The notes under the pieces are model-generated. The model saw only the letters and a program-made list of their open reading frames with translations. It did no database searches and was not told where the DNA came from. Of a stretch of DNA of 32,938 nucleotides, positions 16,071 to 32,705 are shown piece after piece; the stretch's first letter is position 1; each line of letters begins with the position of its first letter. This DNA comes from a virus: UHGV virus genome UHGV-2167056, one strand, 5' to 3'. A program made the position numbers and the translations under genes.

Positions 16071-17402
16071 TTAATCAATTTGTCCTTCCAGCACCTCAAG
16101 CATTCCGCCCCGGATATCCGATTTCAGCTTATCCATATTGATAACCCGGTAAGCATTCACAATCACATCCAGTTTGTCGGGCTGACGTTTCAGACTGTAC
16201 GGTGCATTAACGGCAATCTGCACACTGCCATCCTTATTTTCCACGATATACATCAGATTTTTGTGCCGTTTGTCCCACAGCACCGCTTTTGGCTTTGCCA
16301 GCATTGCCGGTAAGCGCCCGAAGTCCTCTGGCATCAGGGCGATGCCGTCATTCTGATGTTTCACACTGTCTGCATGGAGCACATTTTTACCGCTCATCGC
16401 CAGCAGGCGGGCCGGTGGCGTTCCCGTCCGGCTTTCCACTGCCTGCGCAATGCTTTCAGTCATAAAGCCCAGCGTGCGGATATCGTTACCACCTCGCCGG
16501 GTCTGCATGATGTTTTTTGCCCAGATGCGGAACGCCAGCTGCCGCTCCGGGCTGTTGTTCATCTCCTGAACCACCATTTCCCGTAACGCCGGGCTTTTCA
16601 CCTCGATCAGTTTGCGGATCAGCGCCTGGTCTGTGCCGAACGCTGCCGAGCCGGGGTTATATGACCAGCCCACATCCGGTGTCATGGTTCTGGTGCCATC
16701 TGAATATGTGGTCACCGGCATTTCTCTGACTTCTCCGGTCTGTTTATCCACGCCAGCCTCAACATTGCGGGTGGAGAGATGATCCTCACCGGATGAAACG
16801 GATAACCCCATTGCATCCAGACGAGCCTGAGACAATGGCCGCACACGGCAGCGGCAGTTCCAGCCATTAGGTGGGTAGTGTGTTTTCCAGAACGGATCGT
16901 CATAGCGGAATACCAGACCGTTAAGGGCGGAATGCGACGGGCGGGTACGGCTGTCCATGACCGCCACATACTGCCAGAACGGATGCGTGTCCGTGTTGTT
17001 CATCATCTGCGTGTAACGCCCGGCATTGTAAGCCACCCGGGTGTTCACGTTGTAAATCAGCGCCAGACGACGGGGACTGCCCAGTTGCACTTCTTCCGCG
17101 TTACCGTCGCTGTCCACCACAATCTGCTTTCCCCACCATCCCAGCTTTTGCAGGCGTGGCGTCAGCGTGCGGATAAATGCTTTCTGTGAAATTCCCTCAT
17201 CAATGGCCCGCTGCACTTCGGCCTGTAACGTGGTCACCACATCCAGGCGTGCCGCTTTTGCTGCCGTGAATGAGCGGGCATGAACATCCGCGGCTGTTTC
17301 GAACCAGTTCCAGCTGATATGCGCCCCTTTGACACGGAAGTATGCTACCGCCTCTTTTGAGGGAAGCGTGGCGGCATAACCTAAATCAATCCCCTGTGTC
17401 AT
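16071..17402 (-). CDS. Head morphogenesis protein (Mu F / gp30-like minor head protein)
   Basis: 443-aa ORF overlapping the portal gene end. Confidence 0.8.
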   Translation of the reverse strand: MTQGIDLGYAATLPSKEAVAYFRVKGAHISWNWFETAADVHARSFTAAKAARLDVVTTLQAEVQRAIDEGISQKAFIRTLTPRLQKLGWWGKQIVVDSDGNAEEVQLGSPRRLALIYNVNTRVAYNAGRYTQMMNNTDTHPFWQYVAVMDSRTRPSHSALNGLVFRYDDPFWKTHYPPNGWNCRCRVRPLSQARLDAMGLSVSSGEDHLSTRNVEAGVDKQTGEVREMPVTTYSDGTRTMTPDVGWSYNPGSAAFGTDQALIRKLIEVKSPALREMVVQEMNNSPERQLAFRIWAKNIMQTRRGGNDIRTLGFMTESIAQAVESRTGTPPARLLAMSGKNVLHADSVKHQNDGIALMPEDFGRLPAMLAKPKAVLWDKRHKNLMYIVENKDGSVQIAVNAPYSLKRQPDKLDVIVNAYRVINMDKLKSDIRGGMLEVLEGQID

Positions 17403-18975
17403 CCAGCATCCCCTTCATTTCCGCAGCAAACATGGCATCACTGAGCAGCGTCATCAGGCGGGAATCATCCATTTCACGATAAAGGGCAGGCAGGTCTGCC
17501 AGCGCATCCGCCAGCCCCCGCGTTCTGATGGCATCAATGACCGGCTCCAGTACCGGGTCGATGGCCTCCTGTAAGCGGCGGGCAGGCACCGCGTCCCCCA
17601 TATCATCCAGTTCATCACGCGGCGTGCTTTTCGCTTCCGGCAGTCTGGCTGACAGCGCCGTCTGCTCTGTTTTTTCCTGTTTTTCCGGTGGTGTTTCCCT
17701 GTCGGTCTGAGCCGGTTCATTGCCACTCTGACGGACACGGAATATGGCTTCACCGGGCGTGGGCTGCGGAATACCGGTCTGCTCACGTATCCAGGGATCA
17801 GAAATATCCATCCCCGTACTGAGCTGCATCACCGCACTGGTGATTTTGGTGATATCACCTGGTTCTTTTGTCTGGAAGCAGATACGTGGCAGACGGCGGA
17901 TATCAATAGTGTGCGTGGTGTTCAGGGCGTACAGCGGATACACCAGATCGCGGTTCAGGGTTGCAGCCAGCTGTCGTAAATCAGAATCCCTGATTTCCCG
18001 GCGCACCTCGTTATGTACCTCACCCAGTGAGCGCGCGCCTTTGTCTCCGGCTTCCGTGGTCAGCGTGCCGCCGAGTATTGCTTTGGAGATGGAACGCTCC
18101 CCCCACGAAATCATGGTTTCAAACGGATCGGCCTGACCGTTCGCTGCCGCCTGAAACTCCAGCGACATCCCGGCCGGGATGATCCCGCCTGTACGTCGCC
18201 CGATATCCATCACCGCCCGCATCAGGGCACTTTTCTGCTCCGGTGTTGCCCCGGACGGGTATTTCCCGACCTTCATCGGCAGGCCGTACACCTCCAGAAA
18301 TTCCGCCAGATCGCGCACGGAATAGTTTTTGAAAATGAACGGCCAGATAAGCGTCCGGACAAGCCCGGTTGCACCACCGTAACCGGTGCGTGAACGCGAC
18401 TGATGCACTATCCAGCCAAAGGGCTGAAACGCCACCCCGGAATGGCTGCCGTCACGCAGCCGCAGTTCGCTCAAATCATCCGGGTTAAGGCAGAAATGCC
18501 CGCTGTCACGCCAGCGGATGGCGCGGATGATGTGCATTTTACCGAGCATCCCGTGCTCAATTTCCATGCAGGAATAGCCCTTCAGGATGGCATCCGTGGC
18601 GTCAAACAGCATGGCATCAAACCAGTCTGCGGAATGCAGATATTCGTCGAGCATTTCCGCGTCCTTTTTCTCATTCGCGCTGGCGTTCGGTGGCGGCTCA
18701 ATACTCCATGGCACCCCCTGAATGGCAAGACGTCGCTTGCCCAGCTCCGCAAAAAGGTGGGTGTCCTTTTCTTCAATATCAGCGGCCAGATCGGACTGGG
18801 CAATCAGATCGCCACGTTCAGCCCCGCGAAGGCACTGCGCCGCCCGGTTCGGGGTGATACCCGAAGCCGGATGTTCAATATAACGGCTGGCAATCTGCGG
18901 AATATCCAGCGCGGCACTCTGCATCTCCGGGTCAAAGGAGAAAGGTTTTCCGTCAGTATCAATGATGCGTCCCAC
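17386..18975 (-). CDS. Portal protein (Mu H / gp29-like, DUF935)
   Basis: 529-aa ORF immediately after the large terminase gene. Confidence 0.8.
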   Translation of the reverse strand: MGRIIDTDGKPFSFDPEMQSAALDIPQIASRYIEHPASGITPNRAAQCLRGAERGDLIAQSDLAADIEEKDTHLFAELGKRRLAIQGVPWSIEPPPNASANEKKDAEMLDEYLHSADWFDAMLFDATDAILKGYSCMEIEHGMLGKMHIIRAIRWRDSGHFCLNPDDLSELRLRDGSHSGVAFQPFGWIVHQSRSRTGYGGATGLVRTLIWPFIFKNYSVRDLAEFLEVYGLPMKVGKYPSGATPEQKSALMRAVMDIGRRTGGIIPAGMSLEFQAAANGQADPFETMISWGERSISKAILGGTLTTEAGDKGARSLGEVHNEVRREIRDSDLRQLAATLNRDLVYPLYALNTTHTIDIRRLPRICFQTKEPGDITKITSAVMQLSTGMDISDPWIREQTGIPQPTPGEAIFRVRQSGNEPAQTDRETPPEKQEKTEQTALSARLPEAKSTPRDELDDMGDAVPARRLQEAIDPVLEPVIDAIRTRGLADALADLPALYREMDDSRLMTLLSDAMFAAEMKGMLDDTGD

Positions 18976-20639
18976 TACCAGCCCCCCCGATCAAATTCAT
19001 GATATGCCTCATCGTCATCACGATAACCGCCCTCCATTGCCCGCGACCGCTCCGGTAGCGCCTGACAGGCTGATTCATCCAGGATGAAGCCCTCCATGTA
19101 TGACGCCCGGTTTGCCATACAGAGCGCCACGGCAAAATCACCATGGCGGCGGGCGTTCGCAGCCGTTGCGTTCTGGTCCTTCGTGCGCCCCTTGTCGATT
19201 TGCGGGATACCATTCACTACCTTCACATGGCGCAAATCATCAAGCGTGGTCTGATGGCGGGCGACGAGGATATTCTGATCTTCAAACTCGGCTTTCAGTT
19301 TTGGCATCCACTCGCCGTACCACTTCGGCGACAACATCACGCAGTCGATGATGTCCGGGCCAAAGGCCAGCAGTGCGGCCTCTGCCAGATAGCCGCCGTT
19401 ACCGGTGGCGTCGAACGCCGCACCGACCAGCGCCGGAACGCGGGTCAGGATGTACATCATCACCTGTTCCTGCTGGGCATACGGCAGGTTGCGCAGCTCC
19501 ACGCGAAACACCTCGCGCTTTGCCAGGGATTCGGTGATTTCCAGCAGCACAAAGCAGGACAGGTCACCGGTGCGGGCAAAGTCTTCCCCGAAGCTGAAGC
19601 GGGAACGGGGATTTAATTTCTCTAAAAGCGGTTTTAAATGTTCTTCACACCAGGTTAAAACTTCCGATTCACGCAGCCATGCGGCACGGCTGATGAAGTT
19701 GTCCGGGGCTTCAAACGTCAGAATCGGGATGTCGCGGATCATCGCCATTTCAATAAGCGCGTGGGGGATATAGGCACCGCCGGATTTTTTCGGGATACAG
19801 CCGTATTCCTCGTCGGCATCCTCACGGGGCGGGGCATTTTTGTAGAGATCATCACGCCATTTCTGCTCGCTTTCCGGTGACCATTCCTGATCGGTGACGT
19901 AACAGATACGACGGTACAGCCCGTCCGCAATGGCATCATCCAGGGTTATGCGGTGGACGCTGTAATCCTTGCGCCCCTCGCGGGCTTCCTGAATGTACTG
20001 ATTAAACAGATTATCGACGCCGTTATGCGTGGAGATAATACGCACGCGCGCGCCCCACATAGTGAGCGCCATTGCCGCCTTGAGAAGTTCATCCAGCGAC
20101 TCGTGGAACGCGGCTTCATCAATCACCACATCCCCCTGAAGGCCGCGCAGGTTTGACGGACGGGAAGACAATGCCTGAATTTTGAATCCACTGTTCGGAA
20201 AGCGGATCATGTAGGTCAAAATTTCTTCTTTTTTATCCCGATCCCAGAATGTCTGCTCATACACATCAGCATCTGCCAGCTGGTTAAAGGCACGGGAGAA
20301 CAGCGCGCAGGCAGAAATATATTCCAGCGCCATCTCCTGCTTTGATCCCACATAAAACACATTGCGGCCACCACGACGCTTCGGTTTTGCAGCAGTAATG
20401 ACGTTACGCCCGGCTTCCGCCCAGGTAAGACCGGTGCGGCGGGATTTTTCCGCAATGCAGACCTGACTTTCATCCTCAAACCAGCGGGCCTGATAATCCA
20501 GAAACACCGGCATATCACCGGGCAAATCAAGTCTGTCCGGCACATCCACGCCCAGCAGGGCTTTTTCACCGGACAGATCAATTTTGCGGGGAGGCGTCAT
20601 TTGTATCAGTGAAGGAGACGTTTCTTTGGCTTTGTTCAT
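18975..20639 (-). CDS. Terminase large subunit (Mu gp28-like)
   Basis: 554-aa ORF; ATG overlaps the stop of the upstream 82-aa gene (ATGA). Confidence 0.85.
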   Translation of the reverse strand: MNKAKETSPSLIQMTPPRKIDLSGEKALLGVDVPDRLDLPGDMPVFLDYQARWFEDESQVCIAEKSRRTGLTWAEAGRNVITAAKPKRRGGRNVFYVGSKQEMALEYISACALFSRAFNQLADADVYEQTFWDRDKKEEILTYMIRFPNSGFKIQALSSRPSNLRGLQGDVVIDEAAFHESLDELLKAAMALTMWGARVRIISTHNGVDNLFNQYIQEAREGRKDYSVHRITLDDAIADGLYRRICYVTDQEWSPESEQKWRDDLYKNAPPREDADEEYGCIPKKSGGAYIPHALIEMAMIRDIPILTFEAPDNFISRAAWLRESEVLTWCEEHLKPLLEKLNPRSRFSFGEDFARTGDLSCFVLLEITESLAKREVFRVELRNLPYAQQEQVMMYILTRVPALVGAAFDATGNGGYLAEAALLAFGPDIIDCVMLSPKWYGEWMPKLKAEFEDQNILVARHQTTLDDLRHVKVVNGIPQIDKGRTKDQNATAANARRHGDFAVALCMANRASYMEGFILDESACQALPERSRAMEGGYRDDDEAYHEFDRGGW

Positions 20640-20887
20640 CAGGCTTTACCTGTCAGAATGCTTTTGATTCGGAACTCAAGCTCTTCAGTCATCACGTCCA
20701 CGCCACTCAACTCATCAGTGACAGCCTCTGCCAGCAGCGAATGCAGTTGTTCCAGGGATATTTCCCCGGCAATGCTGAGTTCAGTCAACTCACGACACGC
20801 TTTTATGGTTTCAGGAGGTAACTGTGTTGCAAGACTGAATGCCTTCTGATGAGCACTACTCATCAGTGAGCGGTTATCTGTTACCAC
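20639..20887 (-). CDS. Small protein paralogous to the C-terminal domain of the gp27-like protein
   Basis: 82-aa ORF from GTG, preceded by AGGAGGTGA overlapping the gp27-like stop; its stop overlaps the terminase ATG. The C-terminus AVTDELSGVDVMTEELEFRIKSILTGKA parallels gp27-like AVTDELRGVDGMSEQIEFRIRQMLLGKA. Confidence 0.55.
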   Translation of the reverse strand: MVTDNRSLMSSAHQKAFSLATQLPPETIKACRELTELSIAGEISLEQLHSLLAEAVTDELSGVDVMTEELEFRIKSILTGKA

Positions 20888-20897
20888 GATTCACCTC

Positions 20898-21479
20898 CTA
20901 CGCCTTACCAAGCAGCATCTGCCTGATACGGAATTCTATCTGCTCGCTCATGCCATCCACGCCGCGCAACTCGTCGGTGACGGCGTTCGCCATCTCTTCA
21001 GCAAATGCGGCCCGGATTTCTTTTTCACGCTTAATACTGCGCTCGGCGGCACTTTCTGCACGCTGTGCCGACAGGAGGATGTCCTTGATGAGGCGCATAT
21101 CCACATCGCTGTCGCTGTTCAGGGATTCGGTGGCGGCACGCAGACGGCGGTACATCAGGGCACGGGACATCTCCAGAATCAGTGCCGTGGTTTCACCGGT
21201 CGGCTTATCCCCCAGTTCGGCCATCATGGCTTTTGTCTGCTCGCGTAAATCACGCAGATTACGGGCAATCAGCTCATTACGGGAGGCTTCCCGGCTGATG
21301 GCCGCCGGTGAAAGCTGCTGCTCTTCCGGCAGGCCTGCCTCACGGATCAGACGGTTGATTTCCTCGCGGATCTGGACCTGCGTCAGGCGTTTTTCACGCA
21401 GCATTTCCAGCAGCGGCTTACGGATGCTGTCGGGGAGCAAATCCACCTTGCGTACACGGCCACGCGTCGGCTTATCCAT
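20898..21479 (-). CDS. Mu gp27-like protein (DUF3486; small terminase subunit candidate)
   Basis: 193-aa ORF immediately upstream of the terminase large subunit gene. Confidence 0.7.
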   Translation of the reverse strand: MDKPTRGRVRKVDLLPDSIRKPLLEMLREKRLTQVQIREEINRLIREAGLPEEQQLSPAAISREASRNELIARNLRDLREQTKAMMAELGDKPTGETTALILEMSRALMYRRLRAATESLNSDSDVDMRLIKDILLSAQRAESAAERSIKREKEIRAAFAEEMANAVTDELRGVDGMSEQIEFRIRQMLLGKA

Positions 21480-21481
21480 CG

Positions 21482-21772
21482 TTACCCCCTTGCGCGTGGT
21501 TTCTTCACACCCGGAACAGTGGCACGACCTTCCGCCACATCCTGACCCCGGCCGGTCAGTTCAGCGATGAAATAACCGTTAACAAGCGTGCGCTTACGCA
21601 CCAGTCCCTGCTCAGCAAGCCAGGCAATGTGGGTGTGAACGGTGTCGCGGGACACGCGGTGGCCGTAATCATCCAGGCAGTCCTGAAGCACGGATTCGCC
21701 CAGTTCGCCGTTGTAATCCGCCAGCGACCGCAGAATGACAAGACGCTGATCTTCAGTAATGAAATCACTCAT
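21482..21772 (-). CDS. Mu gp26-like small protein
   Basis: 96-aa ORF between the gp25-like and gp27-like genes. Confidence 0.5.
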   Translation of the reverse strand: MSDFITEDQRLVILRSLADYNGELGESVLQDCLDDYGHRVSRDTVHTHIAWLAEQGLVRKRTLVNGYFIAELTGRGQDVAEGRATVPGVKKPRARG

Positions 21773-22076
21773 TGTGTTTTTTCCTTACAGCCTGCTCCAG
21801 CAGCAGTTCGTTCTGGTGGGAGACGGATTTCAGGGTGGCATTGGTGGCCTTAAGCTCACCGCGCAGGGTGGTGATTTCGATATTGAGTCTGTTCACCTCC
21901 TGCTGCGTGGGCAGGCCGGAAATCCGGCTCTCCACCCGCTCAACCCGGTCGGAGAGTTTTTCAAAGGCCTCGCGGGGGACAAAGGTTTTGCGCATCAGCG
22001 CCATAAAGATCCCCCCGGCCGTGGCTGTTGCCGACAGGATCGGCACGACATAATCTTTAACGATGCTGACCCACAT
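21765..22076 (-). CDS. Mu gp25-like membrane protein (DUF2730; releasin candidate for the SAR endolysin)
   Basis: 103-aa ORF with an N-terminal hydrophobic segment (VVPILSATATAGGIFMALM) followed by coiled-coil-like sequence. Confidence 0.55.
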   Translation of the reverse strand: MWVSIVKDYVVPILSATATAGGIFMALMRKTFVPREAFEKLSDRVERVESRISGLPTQQEVNRLNIEITTLRGELKATNATLKSVSHQNELLLEQAVRKKHNE

Positions 22077-23531: not shown

Positions 23532-23954
23532 TCAGAAAAGCCGTGGCTGCGTGCGTTCCTGATGCAGGCGACGCTGGTTGCGGATAACGGAGTAAATCTG
23601 CGTCTCTGACATCTGGTAGTGGCGGCGCAGGGTTTCAATTTTTTCGCCCTGGCTCCAGCGGGAAAAAATTTCATTATTGCGCAGTTCGGTGAAAAGGGAT
23701 TCACCGACCGGGAGATAATAACCACGCCCGCCCATGTACCCGGCCTGTGCGGCTGCAACCTTACGGGCAAGCATTCCCGCCTGAGCAGGTTCAATCCCCT
23801 GACGGTGCAGTTCAGCACTGATCACATCAACCAGGTCCCGCAGCGTGCCGGGCCAGTTCTTTTTCAGCTCATCATCAGGAATATCATCCAGACGGTCAAT
23901 CAGCGCGTGCAGCTGTTCGCTGTCACCAAACATGCTCATCTGTGTTTCAGCCAT
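23532..23954 (-). CDS. Mor/C-family transcriptional activator
   Basis: 140-aa ORF whose C-terminal half (GGRGYYLPVGESLFTELRNNEIFSRW...IYSVIRNQRRL) has the Mor/C-family pattern. It sits between gemA-like and lys, where Mu has mor and C. Confidence 0.75.
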   Translation of the reverse strand: MAETQMSMFGDSEQLHALIDRLDDIPDDELKKNWPGTLRDLVDVISAELHRQGIEPAQAGMLARKVAAAQAGYMGGRGYYLPVGESLFTELRNNEIFSRWSQGEKIETLRRHYQMSETQIYSVIRNQRRLHQERTQPRLF

Positions 23955-29378: not shown

Positions 29379-29606
29379 TTAGCTGACTTGTTTCGCACCA
29401 ACAGAACGGCATATTCCGCTGTAAACTTCTGTCGCACCTTCGCGATCAAGTCCGGCAGATATCACCATTCGTGTGCGGTCATTAAATTCAAAAAGTAAAT
29501 CGCCACATTCTTTATTTTCGGCCAGTGAAATCACCTTCACGTTATCGAAATTAACCAGGTAAAAGCGTCCGTAAATATCAGGAATATTAAATACCGCCAT
29601 AATCAC
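29379..29606 (-). CDS. Hypothetical small early protein at the position of Mu kil
   Basis: 75-aa ORF immediately downstream of B with a 4-nt overlap; the assignment is positional only. Confidence 0.4.
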   Translation of the reverse strand: MIMAVFNIPDIYGRFYLVNFDNVKVISLAENKECGDLLFEFNDRTRMVISAGLDREGATEVYSGICRSVGAKQVS

Positions 29607-30544
29607 ACCTGTGAGAGTAATTCAGGGTTGGTATAAACCTCTTTAAAGGCCGCATTAATATGTTTTTCTGTCAGCGCCGCGCCTTCACCGCTGGCGGTGA
29701 GCCACGCCTGGTTAAGCGTATGTGTCAGAACGCGTAACGCTCCCGGTTTTTCAGCGATAGCCTGCATGACGGCCAGCTCGGCCTCACCACTGATACCCCA
29801 TGCCCTGGCAATGGCCAGCACATCCGCCTTTTTAGCCTTGCGAAGTTGTTTTGTACGGGCAAGACGACTGAACAGGCGCGATAAGTCATCAACGGCGCGG
29901 CGTCCACCCTTAAACAGTCCGCGCGGGTTACCAATAAGCACCATCCCGATCCCCGTGGCGTCCTGGATTGCACGCAGTTGTTCCAGACCGTCAATACCCA
30001 GATGATCCGCCTCATCCACAATCACCAGCCCACGCGTTCCCGTCAGGCGACGGCGGATGGCGCGGGATAACGCCCCCTTGTTCGCGCGGGTGTAATCAAT
30101 CCCCAGCGCATCGGCCAGCTCCAGCAGACACTCCGTGACGCTGGAGTGCGCGGGTGACAGGGTGATCATCCAGGTGTTTGGTTGCTCCTGGCAGTAATTA
30201 CGGGCAGTGGCCGTTTTACCCACACCCGGTACGCCCACAATAACGTTAATACAGCCCATCAGGCGAACCGCCTGAAACAGTGCGCGCAGCTCCTGGACTG
30301 TCTGAGTTTCCACAAACTGCGGCGGTTCCGGCAGTGCGCTTTGTTTATTCCAGTTCTCATACCAGGAGCGCAGGGAAGCAGCCACAGCAGCGTTATCGCC
30401 TTTATATTTTCCCTTACGGAAAGCCGATAATGTGCCGTCGGAAATTCCCGCCTCTCTGGCGATGGCATACTGCGTCAGTACGCCGCCATCAATAAGTTCA
30501 TCAATGGTCTTGATTACATCGTTAATATCGGTCATATTATTCAC
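29603..30544 (-). CDS. B: DNA transposition ATPase MuB-like (AAA+ target-DNA activator)
   Basis: 313-aa ORF; N-terminal HTH-like region resembling the MuB N-terminus (DGTLSAFRKGKYKGDN); Walker A GVPGVGKT; Walker B-like VIVDEADHL. Confidence 0.9.
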   Translation of the reverse strand: MNNMTDINDVIKTIDELIDGGVLTQYAIAREAGISDGTLSAFRKGKYKGDNAAVAASLRSWYENWNKQSALPEPPQFVETQTVQELRALFQAVRLMGCINVIVGVPGVGKTATARNYCQEQPNTWMITLSPAHSSVTECLLELADALGIDYTRANKGALSRAIRRRLTGTRGLVIVDEADHLGIDGLEQLRAIQDATGIGMVLIGNPRGLFKGGRRAVDDLSRLFSRLARTKQLRKAKKADVLAIARAWGISGEAELAVMQAIAEKPGALRVLTHTLNQAWLTASGEGAALTEKHINAAFKEVYTNPELLSQV

Positions 30545-30617: not shown

Positions 30618-32705
30618 TCAGGCCAGCGGATCACTTTCTTTTAATTTCGCTTCGAGCAGTTGCAATCCCCGCTGGAAATTACGCTCGTATTCTTCATCAG
30701 GTTCATCGTCAGCGACCGGTTGCTGAACGGTCACCGTATTACCCACAGGGCGGTATATGTTTTCCAGCCAGGGCTCCTGCGGCTTGTGCTCCAGCACGTT
30801 GACAACCTCATCCTCGGCATCACGGATTTTTTCCTCTGCGCGTTTACGCATGCCTTTAAGGCGCTGCTGCTGTTTGTAGTATTCCGCGCTGACAGGGAAG
30901 GCTTCGCGTTTATTGCCGTCCCATACCGCCTCGCAAATCACGCTGCCATCCGGGCGGCGCACGGTAATTCGTTCGGCATCATGAATGTCATAGCTGATAA
31001 GTACCTTACGGCCATGCTCGTCACGCAGCTCGGGCGCGTAGTAAATATTATTCAGCCAGCGTATTTCACAGCGTCTTACAGGGCGCTCCACCATCGGCCG
31101 GAACATATCCCGCAGTTCAACATCGGACAGCCATTCAATTTCCGTGTCCTCTTCCGCCAGGCGTTTTTTTCTGAACTCCGCCGGGCTGTAATGTTTACCG
31201 TTCGGCTTCATGGGTAATTCATCGTGCGGCCGGTTGTTGTACCACTCAACACCGTCACGAATGGCATCAATCAGTTCAGACCAGGACGGTAAATCACGCA
31301 TCGCTGACTGCTGCCGGGCGTTCAGCCGTTTGCCCTGTTGCAGGGCACTGAATGCCGAGCGTAAATCGCGGTTGGTTTTACGTAACGTCTCGCGATCTGC
31401 TCCTTTCCCGAAATAGGTGCGGTATTTACGGGCTATGCGCATCGGTAATGTGCGGTTAAGCCGTTCGATAATGCCCCGTCCCTGCGGATTACCGGCAATC
31501 CCTGTCGGGTGATTAATCCCCAGTCGTGGCAGTATCCCCACAATCTCCTTATCCAGGACGTCGGCGGTTTCCCCGGAGCCATTATCCGAGTAATACAGAA
31601 ACGGTTTGCCATGATGGCGAATACCGTGCTGTATGGCACCGGCTACGGCGAAAACATTTTCAGCCAGGTCAAGGCTCCAGCCCACCACAAAGCGCGTGCC
31701 ACCGTCGATAACAAAGGTCACTTCCGGTGCGAATGGCCGCCCGTGAACCGGGTGCGCGCATTTCAGCTTCATGCCGTGACCGTCACCAATCCAGACATAA
31801 TTCACCGGCATTCTGGACCAGTCGCGGCGCGTGAATCCCTCAAGCTGACGGTATTCACTGCCAGTTACCCGGCCTTTTTGTTTCACCACTTCCGGCAGTT
31901 TCTTCATTGCGCGGCGAATGGTGTCATAAGAGGGCATGATATCGAGCATATAAGGCTCATCAGCGTGCCGGTGCTGCCATTCAGCAACAAAATCCTCGTA
32001 AGCCTCGGTCATTGGTCGGCCGTTTGACTGGCGATGCTGCGCCAGAAATTCGGGCAGCCAGTTAATATCTTCGGCTTTTATTTCCTGGCGTTTACCCGGT
32101 GCCAGTAAAAGCAGGCGTTCAGCGGCGTTCTGTGCCTTGTTAAAGGCCGCAATCCAGCGTTTCAGCGTGATTTCACTCAACGCACGGCTGTTTCCCTTTT
32201 TGGCGTTCGCCGTCTCAACCATTGCCACAATGCGCTCGTCCAGTTGCGAACGTGCCAGGTTGTCAACGATAAACCGGATAGCCTTCGCACAGCTGAAACC
32301 AGGTTGTTGCGCGACTTTCAGAACTTCGCTGACGATCGCGATTCGTGCATCAGCCACCTGGCGCTGGTTTTCAGTCAGGGCATTGAGGCGTTCGACCATC
32401 AGTTGTGGTGATCCGCGATATGCCTCCACCGCATCAACCACGGCAGACGAGCGTCTGGCCTTTGTCACCACCGGAGCCGGTGATTCATCGGCTTTTTGCG
32501 TCATCAGTTGCAGGGCATAACGTTCGCGTAATGCCTGCTGTGTCACTTCAGGTAAACAGTCAATGCTGTATTCAAAACCTTTAGCGCCTTTCTTGCGGCG
32601 TCTGCTGGTTTCGCTGGTTGCATACTTCCTGATTGAATAGCGAACGCCTTGCTCCGTTCCCGGCATCCCCGGTAATCCAACCAGTTCTTTGACTGAAGCA
32701 AACAT
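30618..32705 (-). CDS. A: DDE transposase MuA-like
   Basis: 695-aa ORF; N-terminus (VKELVGLPGMPGTEQGV) resembles the MuA enhancer-binding domain; immediately downstream of ner. Confidence 0.9.
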   Translation of the reverse strand: MFASVKELVGLPGMPGTEQGVRYSIRKYATSETSRRRKKGAKGFEYSIDCLPEVTQQALRERYALQLMTQKADESPAPVVTKARRSSAVVDAVEAYRGSPQLMVERLNALTENQRQVADARIAIVSEVLKVAQQPGFSCAKAIRFIVDNLARSQLDERIVAMVETANAKKGNSRALSEITLKRWIAAFNKAQNAAERLLLLAPGKRQEIKAEDINWLPEFLAQHRQSNGRPMTEAYEDFVAEWQHRHADEPYMLDIMPSYDTIRRAMKKLPEVVKQKGRVTGSEYRQLEGFTRRDWSRMPVNYVWIGDGHGMKLKCAHPVHGRPFAPEVTFVIDGGTRFVVGWSLDLAENVFAVAGAIQHGIRHHGKPFLYYSDNGSGETADVLDKEIVGILPRLGINHPTGIAGNPQGRGIIERLNRTLPMRIARKYRTYFGKGADRETLRKTNRDLRSAFSALQQGKRLNARQQSAMRDLPSWSELIDAIRDGVEWYNNRPHDELPMKPNGKHYSPAEFRKKRLAEEDTEIEWLSDVELRDMFRPMVERPVRRCEIRWLNNIYYAPELRDEHGRKVLISYDIHDAERITVRRPDGSVICEAVWDGNKREAFPVSAEYYKQQQRLKGMRKRAEEKIRDAEDEVVNVLEHKPQEPWLENIYRPVGNTVTVQQPVADDEPDEEYERNFQRGLQLLEAKLKESDPLA

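Follow-up and report, generated by a model that had tools for sequence, protein, structure and literature searches.

We analysed the 32,938-nucleotide DNA of the UHGV virus genome UHGV-2167056 (the window, meaning this whole stretch), a near-complete Mu-like prophage coded on the minus strand. The analysis centred on an 82-codon open reading frame (ORF) lying between a gp27-like gene, the candidate for the small terminase subunit (TerS), and the gene for the large terminase subunit (TerL). Judged by its sequence, the ORF is a chimera of two genes: codons 1-51 (module A) are homologous to stand-alone small accessory genes found in the same position in related prophages, and codons 52-82 (module B) are a copy of the C-terminal tail of gp27. 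We consider this chimeric origin highly probable. The initial annotation had described the ORF as a separate gene duplicating the gp27 C-terminal domain; this description holds for the last 31 codons and fails for the first ~51, and its duplicated-domain framing is incomplete.

Anatomy of the 82-codon ORF

The gene contacts read by the initial annotation were found in the sequence. A strong Shine-Dalgarno (SD) sequence (AGGAGGTGA, 20899-20891) lies on the gp27 stop codon, and the stop codon of the ORF and the ATG of TerL share one base (TGATG).

BLASTP aligned residues 52-82 of the ORF with residues 163-193 of gp27 (65% identity, 20/31 identical, 26/31 positive, E 1e-12) and returned nothing beyond this segment. 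The best 31-mer identity in 300 shuffles of gp27 was at most 13, compared with the 20 observed. The two tail copies are 259 nt apart and in register. Their DNA has diverged, as the initial annotation had noted, with 62/93 nt identical, and the pair was not reported by a DNA repeat finder. In a profile-profile comparison (hhalign), columns 54-86 of the small-gene family, the last 33, aligned with gp27 residues 161-193, and nothing else aligned. The 82-aa protein matched PHROG 30922 end to end (E 1.1e-55, residues 1-82 on positions 1-82 of 82), whereas gp27 matched this family at positions 51-82 only. By this match PHROG 30922 is the same protein family as the ORF; it is catalogued with neither a function nor a remark on its chimeric make-up, and RefSeq annotates the 82-aa protein as a hypothetical protein. 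The 82-aa protein had no match in Pfam at E <= 0.1, PF11985 (the family of Mu gp27) included.

Compared with Mu gp27 and PF11985, the ORF is without the N-terminal and central helical body (~residues 1-160) but does have the conserved C-terminal tail, and it ends in TGKA with TGATG before TerL. The tail motif shared by the two proteins is A-x-A-V-T/S-D/E-E-L-R-G-x-D-G-x-S-E-x-x-E-x-R-I-x-x-x-L-L-G-K-A, and in gp27 it is conserved as far as phage Mu gp27. An AlphaFold2 model of the ORF (predicted local distance difference test, pLDDT, 68 for the whole model) contained helices at residues 5-22, 25-39 and 45-58 with pLDDT ~70-78, followed in module B by a disordered stretch (58-64) and a helix (68-79). 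The gp27 tail region was predicted, with low confidence, as the end of a long helix, a loop (172-178) and a helix (179-189); the gp27 model was poor (pLDDT 55) and was used for secondary structure only. A Foldseek search of the ORF model against PDB and BFVD gave no match at E < 0.1, and searches for solved structures related to gp27 by sequence and for literature on Mu gp27 returned nothing relevant.

Stand-alone relatives of module A

Homologues of module A occur as small genes of their own in Mu-like prophages of Salmonella and other enterobacteria. A 69-aa Salmonella protein was 38% identical to the 82-aa protein over 42 aa (BLASTP, E 2e-8) and matched PHROG 30922 at positions 5-46 only. 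An exhaustive HMM search of 1.84 billion representatives returned five proteins, one of which (P0133) was rejected as a spurious repeat-protein match; a 67-aa protein (P0132) was matched in the profile search at E 1e-10. Exhaustive profile searches and word-indexed searches together gave four further stand-alone relatives of 65-69 aa (listed as P0132 and P0134-P0137).

The stand-alone genes share with the ORF their slot, an SD sequence on the gp27 stop codon and homology over residues ~1-51. The gap between the gp27 stop and the start of the small gene is 10 nt in the window and in L002-L007, L009, L016, L019 and L020; the spacing holds for the 82-aa loci without exception and for each stand-alone relative whose context was read. 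The two forms part at the 3' side of this homology. The stand-alone genes continue into a 4-codon segment and a short native C-terminus, both missing from the 82-aa form in the alignment, and are followed by a non-coding stretch and a TerL gene with its own start, whereas the 82-aa form runs into the gp27-type tail after Q-L-H-S-L-L-A-E-A and has TGATG. In L016, GGTAGG lies 7 nt before its own TerL ATG. In the Salmonella loci L008 and L009 the small gene, 10 nt after gp27, is followed by ~370 nt that include a reverse-strand ORF, and then by TerL.

In the family alignment, eight columns never vary and another three reach at least 90% conservation. Two N-terminal alleles of the ORF differ at ~20/49 nt with the frame undisturbed. 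Since start, spacing, frame and conserved columns are kept where the synonymous divergence (dS) of gp27 exceeds 1, module A is, as far as its sequence pattern can tell, a real but weakly constrained accessory gene and protein. Because the stand-alone form is found in four diverged lineages and the fused form in one narrow E. coli group, the former is most parsimoniously ancestral. Scans of Pfam, NCBIfam and PADLOC with the 82-aa protein and its stand-alone relatives gave no family and no defence-system match. The L016-type stand-alone gene was absent from complete E. coli genomes, and the Salmonella 69-aa protein had no match among deposited phages.

The reverse ORF between the small gene and TerL in Salmonella (72-82 aa; 3429-3677 in L009, 2928-3056 in L020, and also in L008) was not matched by any entry of Pfam, PHROG, NCBIfam or PADLOC, and may be a moron occupying this variable site.

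Distribution of the three architectures

The initial annotation had left open whether related prophages share the two-gene arrangement. A 1.2-kb query around the site matched 231 records in complete E. coli genomes, and module A was present in only 25 of the 5426 complete genomes. Among the matches listed, most span exactly 259 bp less than the query. This is the difference seen in L001, a locus inside a Stx phage record, where the stop of a 193-aa gp27 overlaps the TerL ATG via GCCTGATGAA. The Salmonella loci L010 and L011 also have the single-gene form, with the gp27 stop overlapping the TerL ATG in L010, and phage Mu has no small gene, its gp28 starting 7 nt after gp27.

The ORF was intact in 11/11 loci compared and in seven readable IMG/VR loci. 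It is rare: 11 clusters were found among 5.8 billion sequences, together with eight IMG/VR contigs. A scan of GTDB species representatives for the ORF found none, and deposited phages gave gp27-tail matches only and no full-length ORF.

Several variants of the ORF were observed. The first two codons of the window allele are GTG and GTA, and the start codon is ATG in L002-L007, L012-L015, L026 and L027; the SD sequence is weakened in L003 and L004 (GGGGGTTAA). Database variants (P0002, P0003 and P0008-P0011) may be decay products such as pseudogenes, or artefacts of assembly, gene calling or annotation. The variant forms comprise in-frame deletions of 2-3 codons in the junction zone, 49-aa calls from codon 34 (P0008 being a truncated 49-aa variant), a 59-aa form with a frameshift and one of 80 aa that is joined to unrelated sequence (P0010 and P0011 being frameshifted).

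Provenance of the tail

Between the ORF tail and the gp27 tail of L001 there are differences at 21/93 nt, compared with 31-36/93 nt for the neighbouring gp27 tails of the two-gene form. The possibility raised by the initial annotation, that the tail matches the gp27 of a different lineage, is thus borne out: its DNA is closer to the gp27 of a single-gene prophage than to the gp27 adjacent to it. Over the final 13 residues, allele L014 has only two differences from L001. This proximity points to a phage of the single-gene type as the source of the stretch from the tail through the TGATG to TerL codon ~20. The gp27 protein of L016, a locus with a stand-alone small gene, is identical in amino acids to that of the window, which points to a small-gene phage as the source of gp27 and module A.

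At residues that are invariant in gp27, four substitutions (R to S, G to V, S to T and Q to E) are fixed in all ORF-tail alleles, and the ORF tail is polymorphic at 7/31 positions. Read in frame +1 or +2, the tail has 4-5 stops in either case.

Selection and divergence

The ratio of non-synonymous to synonymous substitution rates (dN/dS; Nei-Gojobori, nine haplotypes) was 0.04 for gp27 codons 1-161, 0.02 for the gp27 tail and 0.04 for TerL codons 23-280. It was 0.63 for module A and 0.41 for the ORF tail; set against the value for the gp27 tail, the latter suggests that the tail copy is drifting. The stand-alone small genes gave 0.4-0.8, with values of 0.6-0.8 set against 0.06-0.19 for gp27 and the 96-aa gene upstream of it. 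Within the ORF, 29 variable sites fell at codon positions 1+2 and 20 at position 3; the flanks had 19 and 115, respectively (Fisher p 5e-9). The variable sites of the ORF did not differ from an even spread over codon positions (p 0.29).

The start of TerL is also unconstrained. Codons 2-22 showed 8 synonymous versus 90 non-synonymous differences summed over haplotype pairs, with 1, 4 and 3 variable sites at the three codon positions. The N-terminal sequence of TerL is wholly different in L016, L009 and L010, and its length also varies between lineages. Together, the ORF and the TerL N-terminus make up ~310 nt of relaxed constraint, with a strongly constrained gene on either side. A co-evolution of the tail with the TerL N-terminus was considered and rejected, as the identical gp27 proteins of the window and L016 are paired with unrelated TerL N-termini.

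Across the three architectures TerL is 95-99% identical and flank dS is 0.04-0.37, whereas the cassette reaches dS 0.69 in module A and ~0.6 in the tail. With a cassette far more diverged than its flanks, the site behaves as an exchange hot spot. The reverse pattern was found in Salmonella, where L009 and L020 differ by dS 0.18 in the small gene, 1.28 in gp27 and 2.0 in the 96-aa gene; on these sequence distances, a recent exchange of the small gene is indicated. Together, the E. coli and Salmonella patterns argue for horizontal exchange of the cassette.

Proposed origin of the chimera

On balance we favour an origin at a phage mosaic joint, with a tail that has since been drifting and is kept open for coupling to TerL; this account as a whole is probable, less securely so than the chimeric origin taken by itself. 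Two types of phage would have taken part. In the first, a small, fast-evolving accessory gene lay 10 nt after gp27 and was followed by a spacer and a TerL gene with its own start; in the second there was no small gene and the gp27 stop overlapped the TerL ATG. Recombination would have cut into the small gene near codons 51-55 and fused it in frame to the gp27 of the second type, from about codon 163-166 onwards. The junction zone reads V-A-H-A in the small gene, M-A-N-A in gp27 and L-A-E-A in the ORF, so that both parents have a hydrophobic-A-x-A, and the crossover may have taken place across this A-x-A microhomology in codons 52-55. The event would have removed the C-terminus of the small gene, the spacer and the independent initiation region of TerL, a region that L016 retains. 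Its product would be a full gp27, then module A joined to a gp27 tail, then TGATG and TerL, with the ancestral stop-start coupling restored.

If translation of TerL depends on ribosomes arriving at TGATG, as we infer, only an in-frame joint would reach it, the other frames of the tail being full of stops. Selection would then keep the tail open rather than preserve its sequence, and the tail would be a passenger. One reading in the initial annotation was a scar of recombination in which the original coupling to TerL survived. This reading is largely right: the tail and the TGATG match the gp27-TerL junction of relatives without the small gene, and the tail copy changes with hardly any constraint on its protein sequence. 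It leaves out about two-thirds of the ORF, which is not derived from gp27. The other reading of the initial annotation, a stand-alone domain that interacts with TerL, is made less likely by the relaxed constraint on the tail.

Several results weigh against this account. The direction of the event rests on parsimony from few lineages. The dS of the tail against L001 (~0.6) exceeds that of the flanks (0.1-0.25), and L001 would accordingly be the closest sampled relative of the donor and not the donor itself. The dN/dS of the tail, 0.41, is below 1 and its terminal helix still reads LE(S/F)RI(K/R)(S/G)ILTGKA, so some function of the tail could remain. With ~2.6% of point mutations giving stops and ~49 variable sites, ~1.3 stops would be expected, and the openness of the ORF in E. 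coli is by itself not significant. The RNA fold around the TerL start did not surpass those of shuffled sequences, a hairpin (CAGGUAAAGCCUG) that abuts the TerL AUG is weak, and a search of Rfam gave no match.

Alternative explanations

The alternative that survives best is an unlikely one in our estimate: that the chimera is functional, its borrowed gp27 tail tethering the three-helix domain to TerL as a modulator, decoy or adaptor, where it would compete with gp27 for TerL or bring module A to the motor. In lambda and P22, TerL is bound by the TerS C-terminal region, and small terminases usually contact TerL through their conserved C-terminal tail (PMC9611059). The likeness of the ORF tail to the TerL-binding regions of lambda gpNu1 and P22 gp3 is one of analogy only, and we claim no sequence relationship. 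A function of this kind would fit the gp27 tail being the most constrained part of gp27 and conserved to phage Mu, the 65% identity and predicted loop-plus-terminal-helix layout retained by the copy, a dN/dS below 1 in the copy, and the strong SD, position directly before TerL and intactness of the ORF in all loci read. It sits poorly with the loss of gp27-invariant residues in all tail alleles, the polymorphic positions of the tail and the even spread of its substitutions over codon positions. The gene is moreover missing from ~90% of related E. coli prophages and from Mu, and the stand-alone relatives have no tail, which argues that the tail is unneeded for the native role of module A. The more specific idea of a TerS-tail mimic, in which a fast-evolving three-helix domain tethered to TerL tunes or protects the packaging motor, is improbable; such a mimic would, for example, compete with gp27 for TerL or mask TerL from host sensors, and the sublineage would retain it on that account. 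Were it true that the borrowed tail binds TerL, this would map the TerS-TerL contact of Mu-type terminases.

A different order of events, in which the two-gene chimera is older and the single-gene E. coli form arose by a 259-bp deletion between the tail copies, is likewise improbable and touches only the direction of change; the chimeric nature of the ORF is the same in either case. The tails are direct repeats in register whose distance, 259 nt, is the size of the indel, and the L001 tail looks like a hybrid: its first 48 nt are nearer to gp27 copies (3-7 differences) than to ORF copies (11-13), and over its last 45 nt the ORF copies are the nearer ones (9-12, compared with 13-15 for the gp27 copies of two-gene phages). 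However, the same look would arise if the source was a tail of the L001 type and the front half of the ORF copy has lost constrained residues, and the last 45 nt of L001 are equally near to Salmonella gp27 tails (10-11 differences). In addition, T79 is fixed in all ORF tails where L001 has L, and single-gene junctions occur in Salmonella and Mu, which makes the single-gene state ancestral for the group.

It is very improbable that the ORF is no gene and merely a spacer open by chance. Its near-neutral substitutions, the lack of a Pfam, NCBIfam or PADLOC family and an openness in E. coli that is insignificant on its own would suit a spacer, but homologous ORFs are open in the same place and with the same 10-nt spacing in lineages where gp27 dS exceeds 1, the start codon and the strong SD are conserved, and neither the invariant and near-invariant columns across the family nor two diverged N-terminal alleles with an undisrupted frame would be expected of one. 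An origin by local duplication, in which the 3' end of the resident gp27 was copied in tandem and the N-terminal part then diverged past recognition, would account for an ORF plus spacer (259 nt) directly after gp27 with C-termini that align end to end, and is hardly credible when the profile-profile alignment is confined to the last 33 columns, module A has homologues without a gp27 tail, and the tail is nearer to the gp27 of another lineage than to the adjacent one.

Relation to known systems

Mosaic novel joints in tailed phages are ascribed, in the work of the Hendrix/Hatfull school, to recombination that is illegitimate or uses microhomology, after which selection for function acts. The joint described here resembles them in being a sharp joint of modules from different lineages within a 95-99% identical backbone, with a cassette whose history is unlike that of its flanks. 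Such joints commonly fall at gene boundaries, whereas this one is inside a coding sequence and makes an in-frame fusion protein. Gene fusion at a mosaic joint is a known product of phage recombination, and the 82-aa gene is a well-resolved new case of it.

A classical phage moron has its own sigma-70 promoter and intrinsic terminator. The 82-aa ORF differs in both respects, with no promoter-like site in 20300-21900 and terminator-like matches at chance level only, and it sits inside the late operon through stop-start contacts.

The chimera offers a clean, datable example of a new protein made by phage mosaicism, in which three states (no small gene, stand-alone gene and fused gene) coexist in near-identical backbones. 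The need to preserve translational coupling to an essential gene seems to have acted as a filter on the joint, which is in frame. For annotation, the entries under PHROG 30922 and the corresponding RefSeq hypothetical proteins are two-module chimeras, and the gp27-TerL junction of Mu-like prophages is a variable cassette site.

Locus layout and neighbouring genes

The coordinates of the ORF, its parts and the surrounding genes are given in Table 1. The late operon runs in the order endolysin, spanin-like genes, a TraR/DksA zinc-finger gene, DUF2730, a 96-aa VpaChn25_0724-family gene, gp27, the 82-codon ORF, TerL and portal. MuF, I protease, T major head protein, tail sheath and tape measure are also encoded in the window.

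Table 1 Features of the 82-codon ORF and its surroundings in the window.
Feature	Position	Strand	Basis or remark
MuA	30618-32705		prophage gene in window
MuB	29603-30544		prophage gene in window
Mor	23532-23954		prophage gene in window
gp27-like gene, 193 aa, candidate small terminase subunit	20898-21479	-	PF11985 E 3e-33; PHROG 426
gp27 C-terminal tail, codons 163-193 (MANAVTDELRGVDGMSEQIEFRIRQMLLGKA)	20901-20993	-	translation
Shine-Dalgarno AGGAGGTGA	20891-20899	-	overlaps gp27 TAG stop 20898-20900; 3 nt upstream of GTG
82-aa chimeric ORF, stop included	20639-20887	-	GTG start 20887-20885; PHROG 30922
Module A, codons 1-51	20735-20887	-	homologous to stand-alone small accessory genes; predicted three-helix unit
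Junction zone, codons 52-55 (L-A-E-A)	20723-20734	-	resembles both parents
Module B, codons 52-82, gp27 tail copy (LAEAVTDELSGVDVMTEELEFRIKSILTGKA)	20642-20734	-	BLASTP and hhalign
TGATG stop-start overlap, ORF/TerL	20637-20641	-	ORF TGA 20641-20639, TerL ATG 20639-20637
Large terminase (TerL), 554 aa	18975-20639	-	PHROG 2 'terminase large subunit' E 9e-44
TerL codons 2-22, hypervariable N-terminus	20574-20636	-	unconstrained; moves with tail in mosaic block
Mu-type portal	17386-18975		PF06074; directly after TerL

The gp27-like protein scored 116 bits against PF11985 (Phage_Mu_Gp27/DUF3486; cut-off 28) and matched PHROG 426, 'terminase small subunit', at E 9e-55. TerL matched PHROG profiles only, with no match in Pfam or NCBIfam; RefSeq names it 'hypothetical protein' in the fetched loci and 'terminase-like family protein' in one search row.

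The 96-aa gene (21482-21772, minus strand) belongs to NCBIfam VpaChn25_0724, occupies the position of Mu gp26 and ends 2 nt before the gp27 ATG. It showed weak winged-helix/ArsR-type matches, and a 291-aa in-frame fusion of this gene with gp27 (P0013) is encoded on one Logan contig. On the plus strand, opposite to the remaining prophage genes, the ORF at 430-951 encodes a tail-fibre assembly protein (PF02413); in Mu-type phages, the opposite orientation of a tail-fibre assembly ORF is expected for an invertible G-segment-like region.

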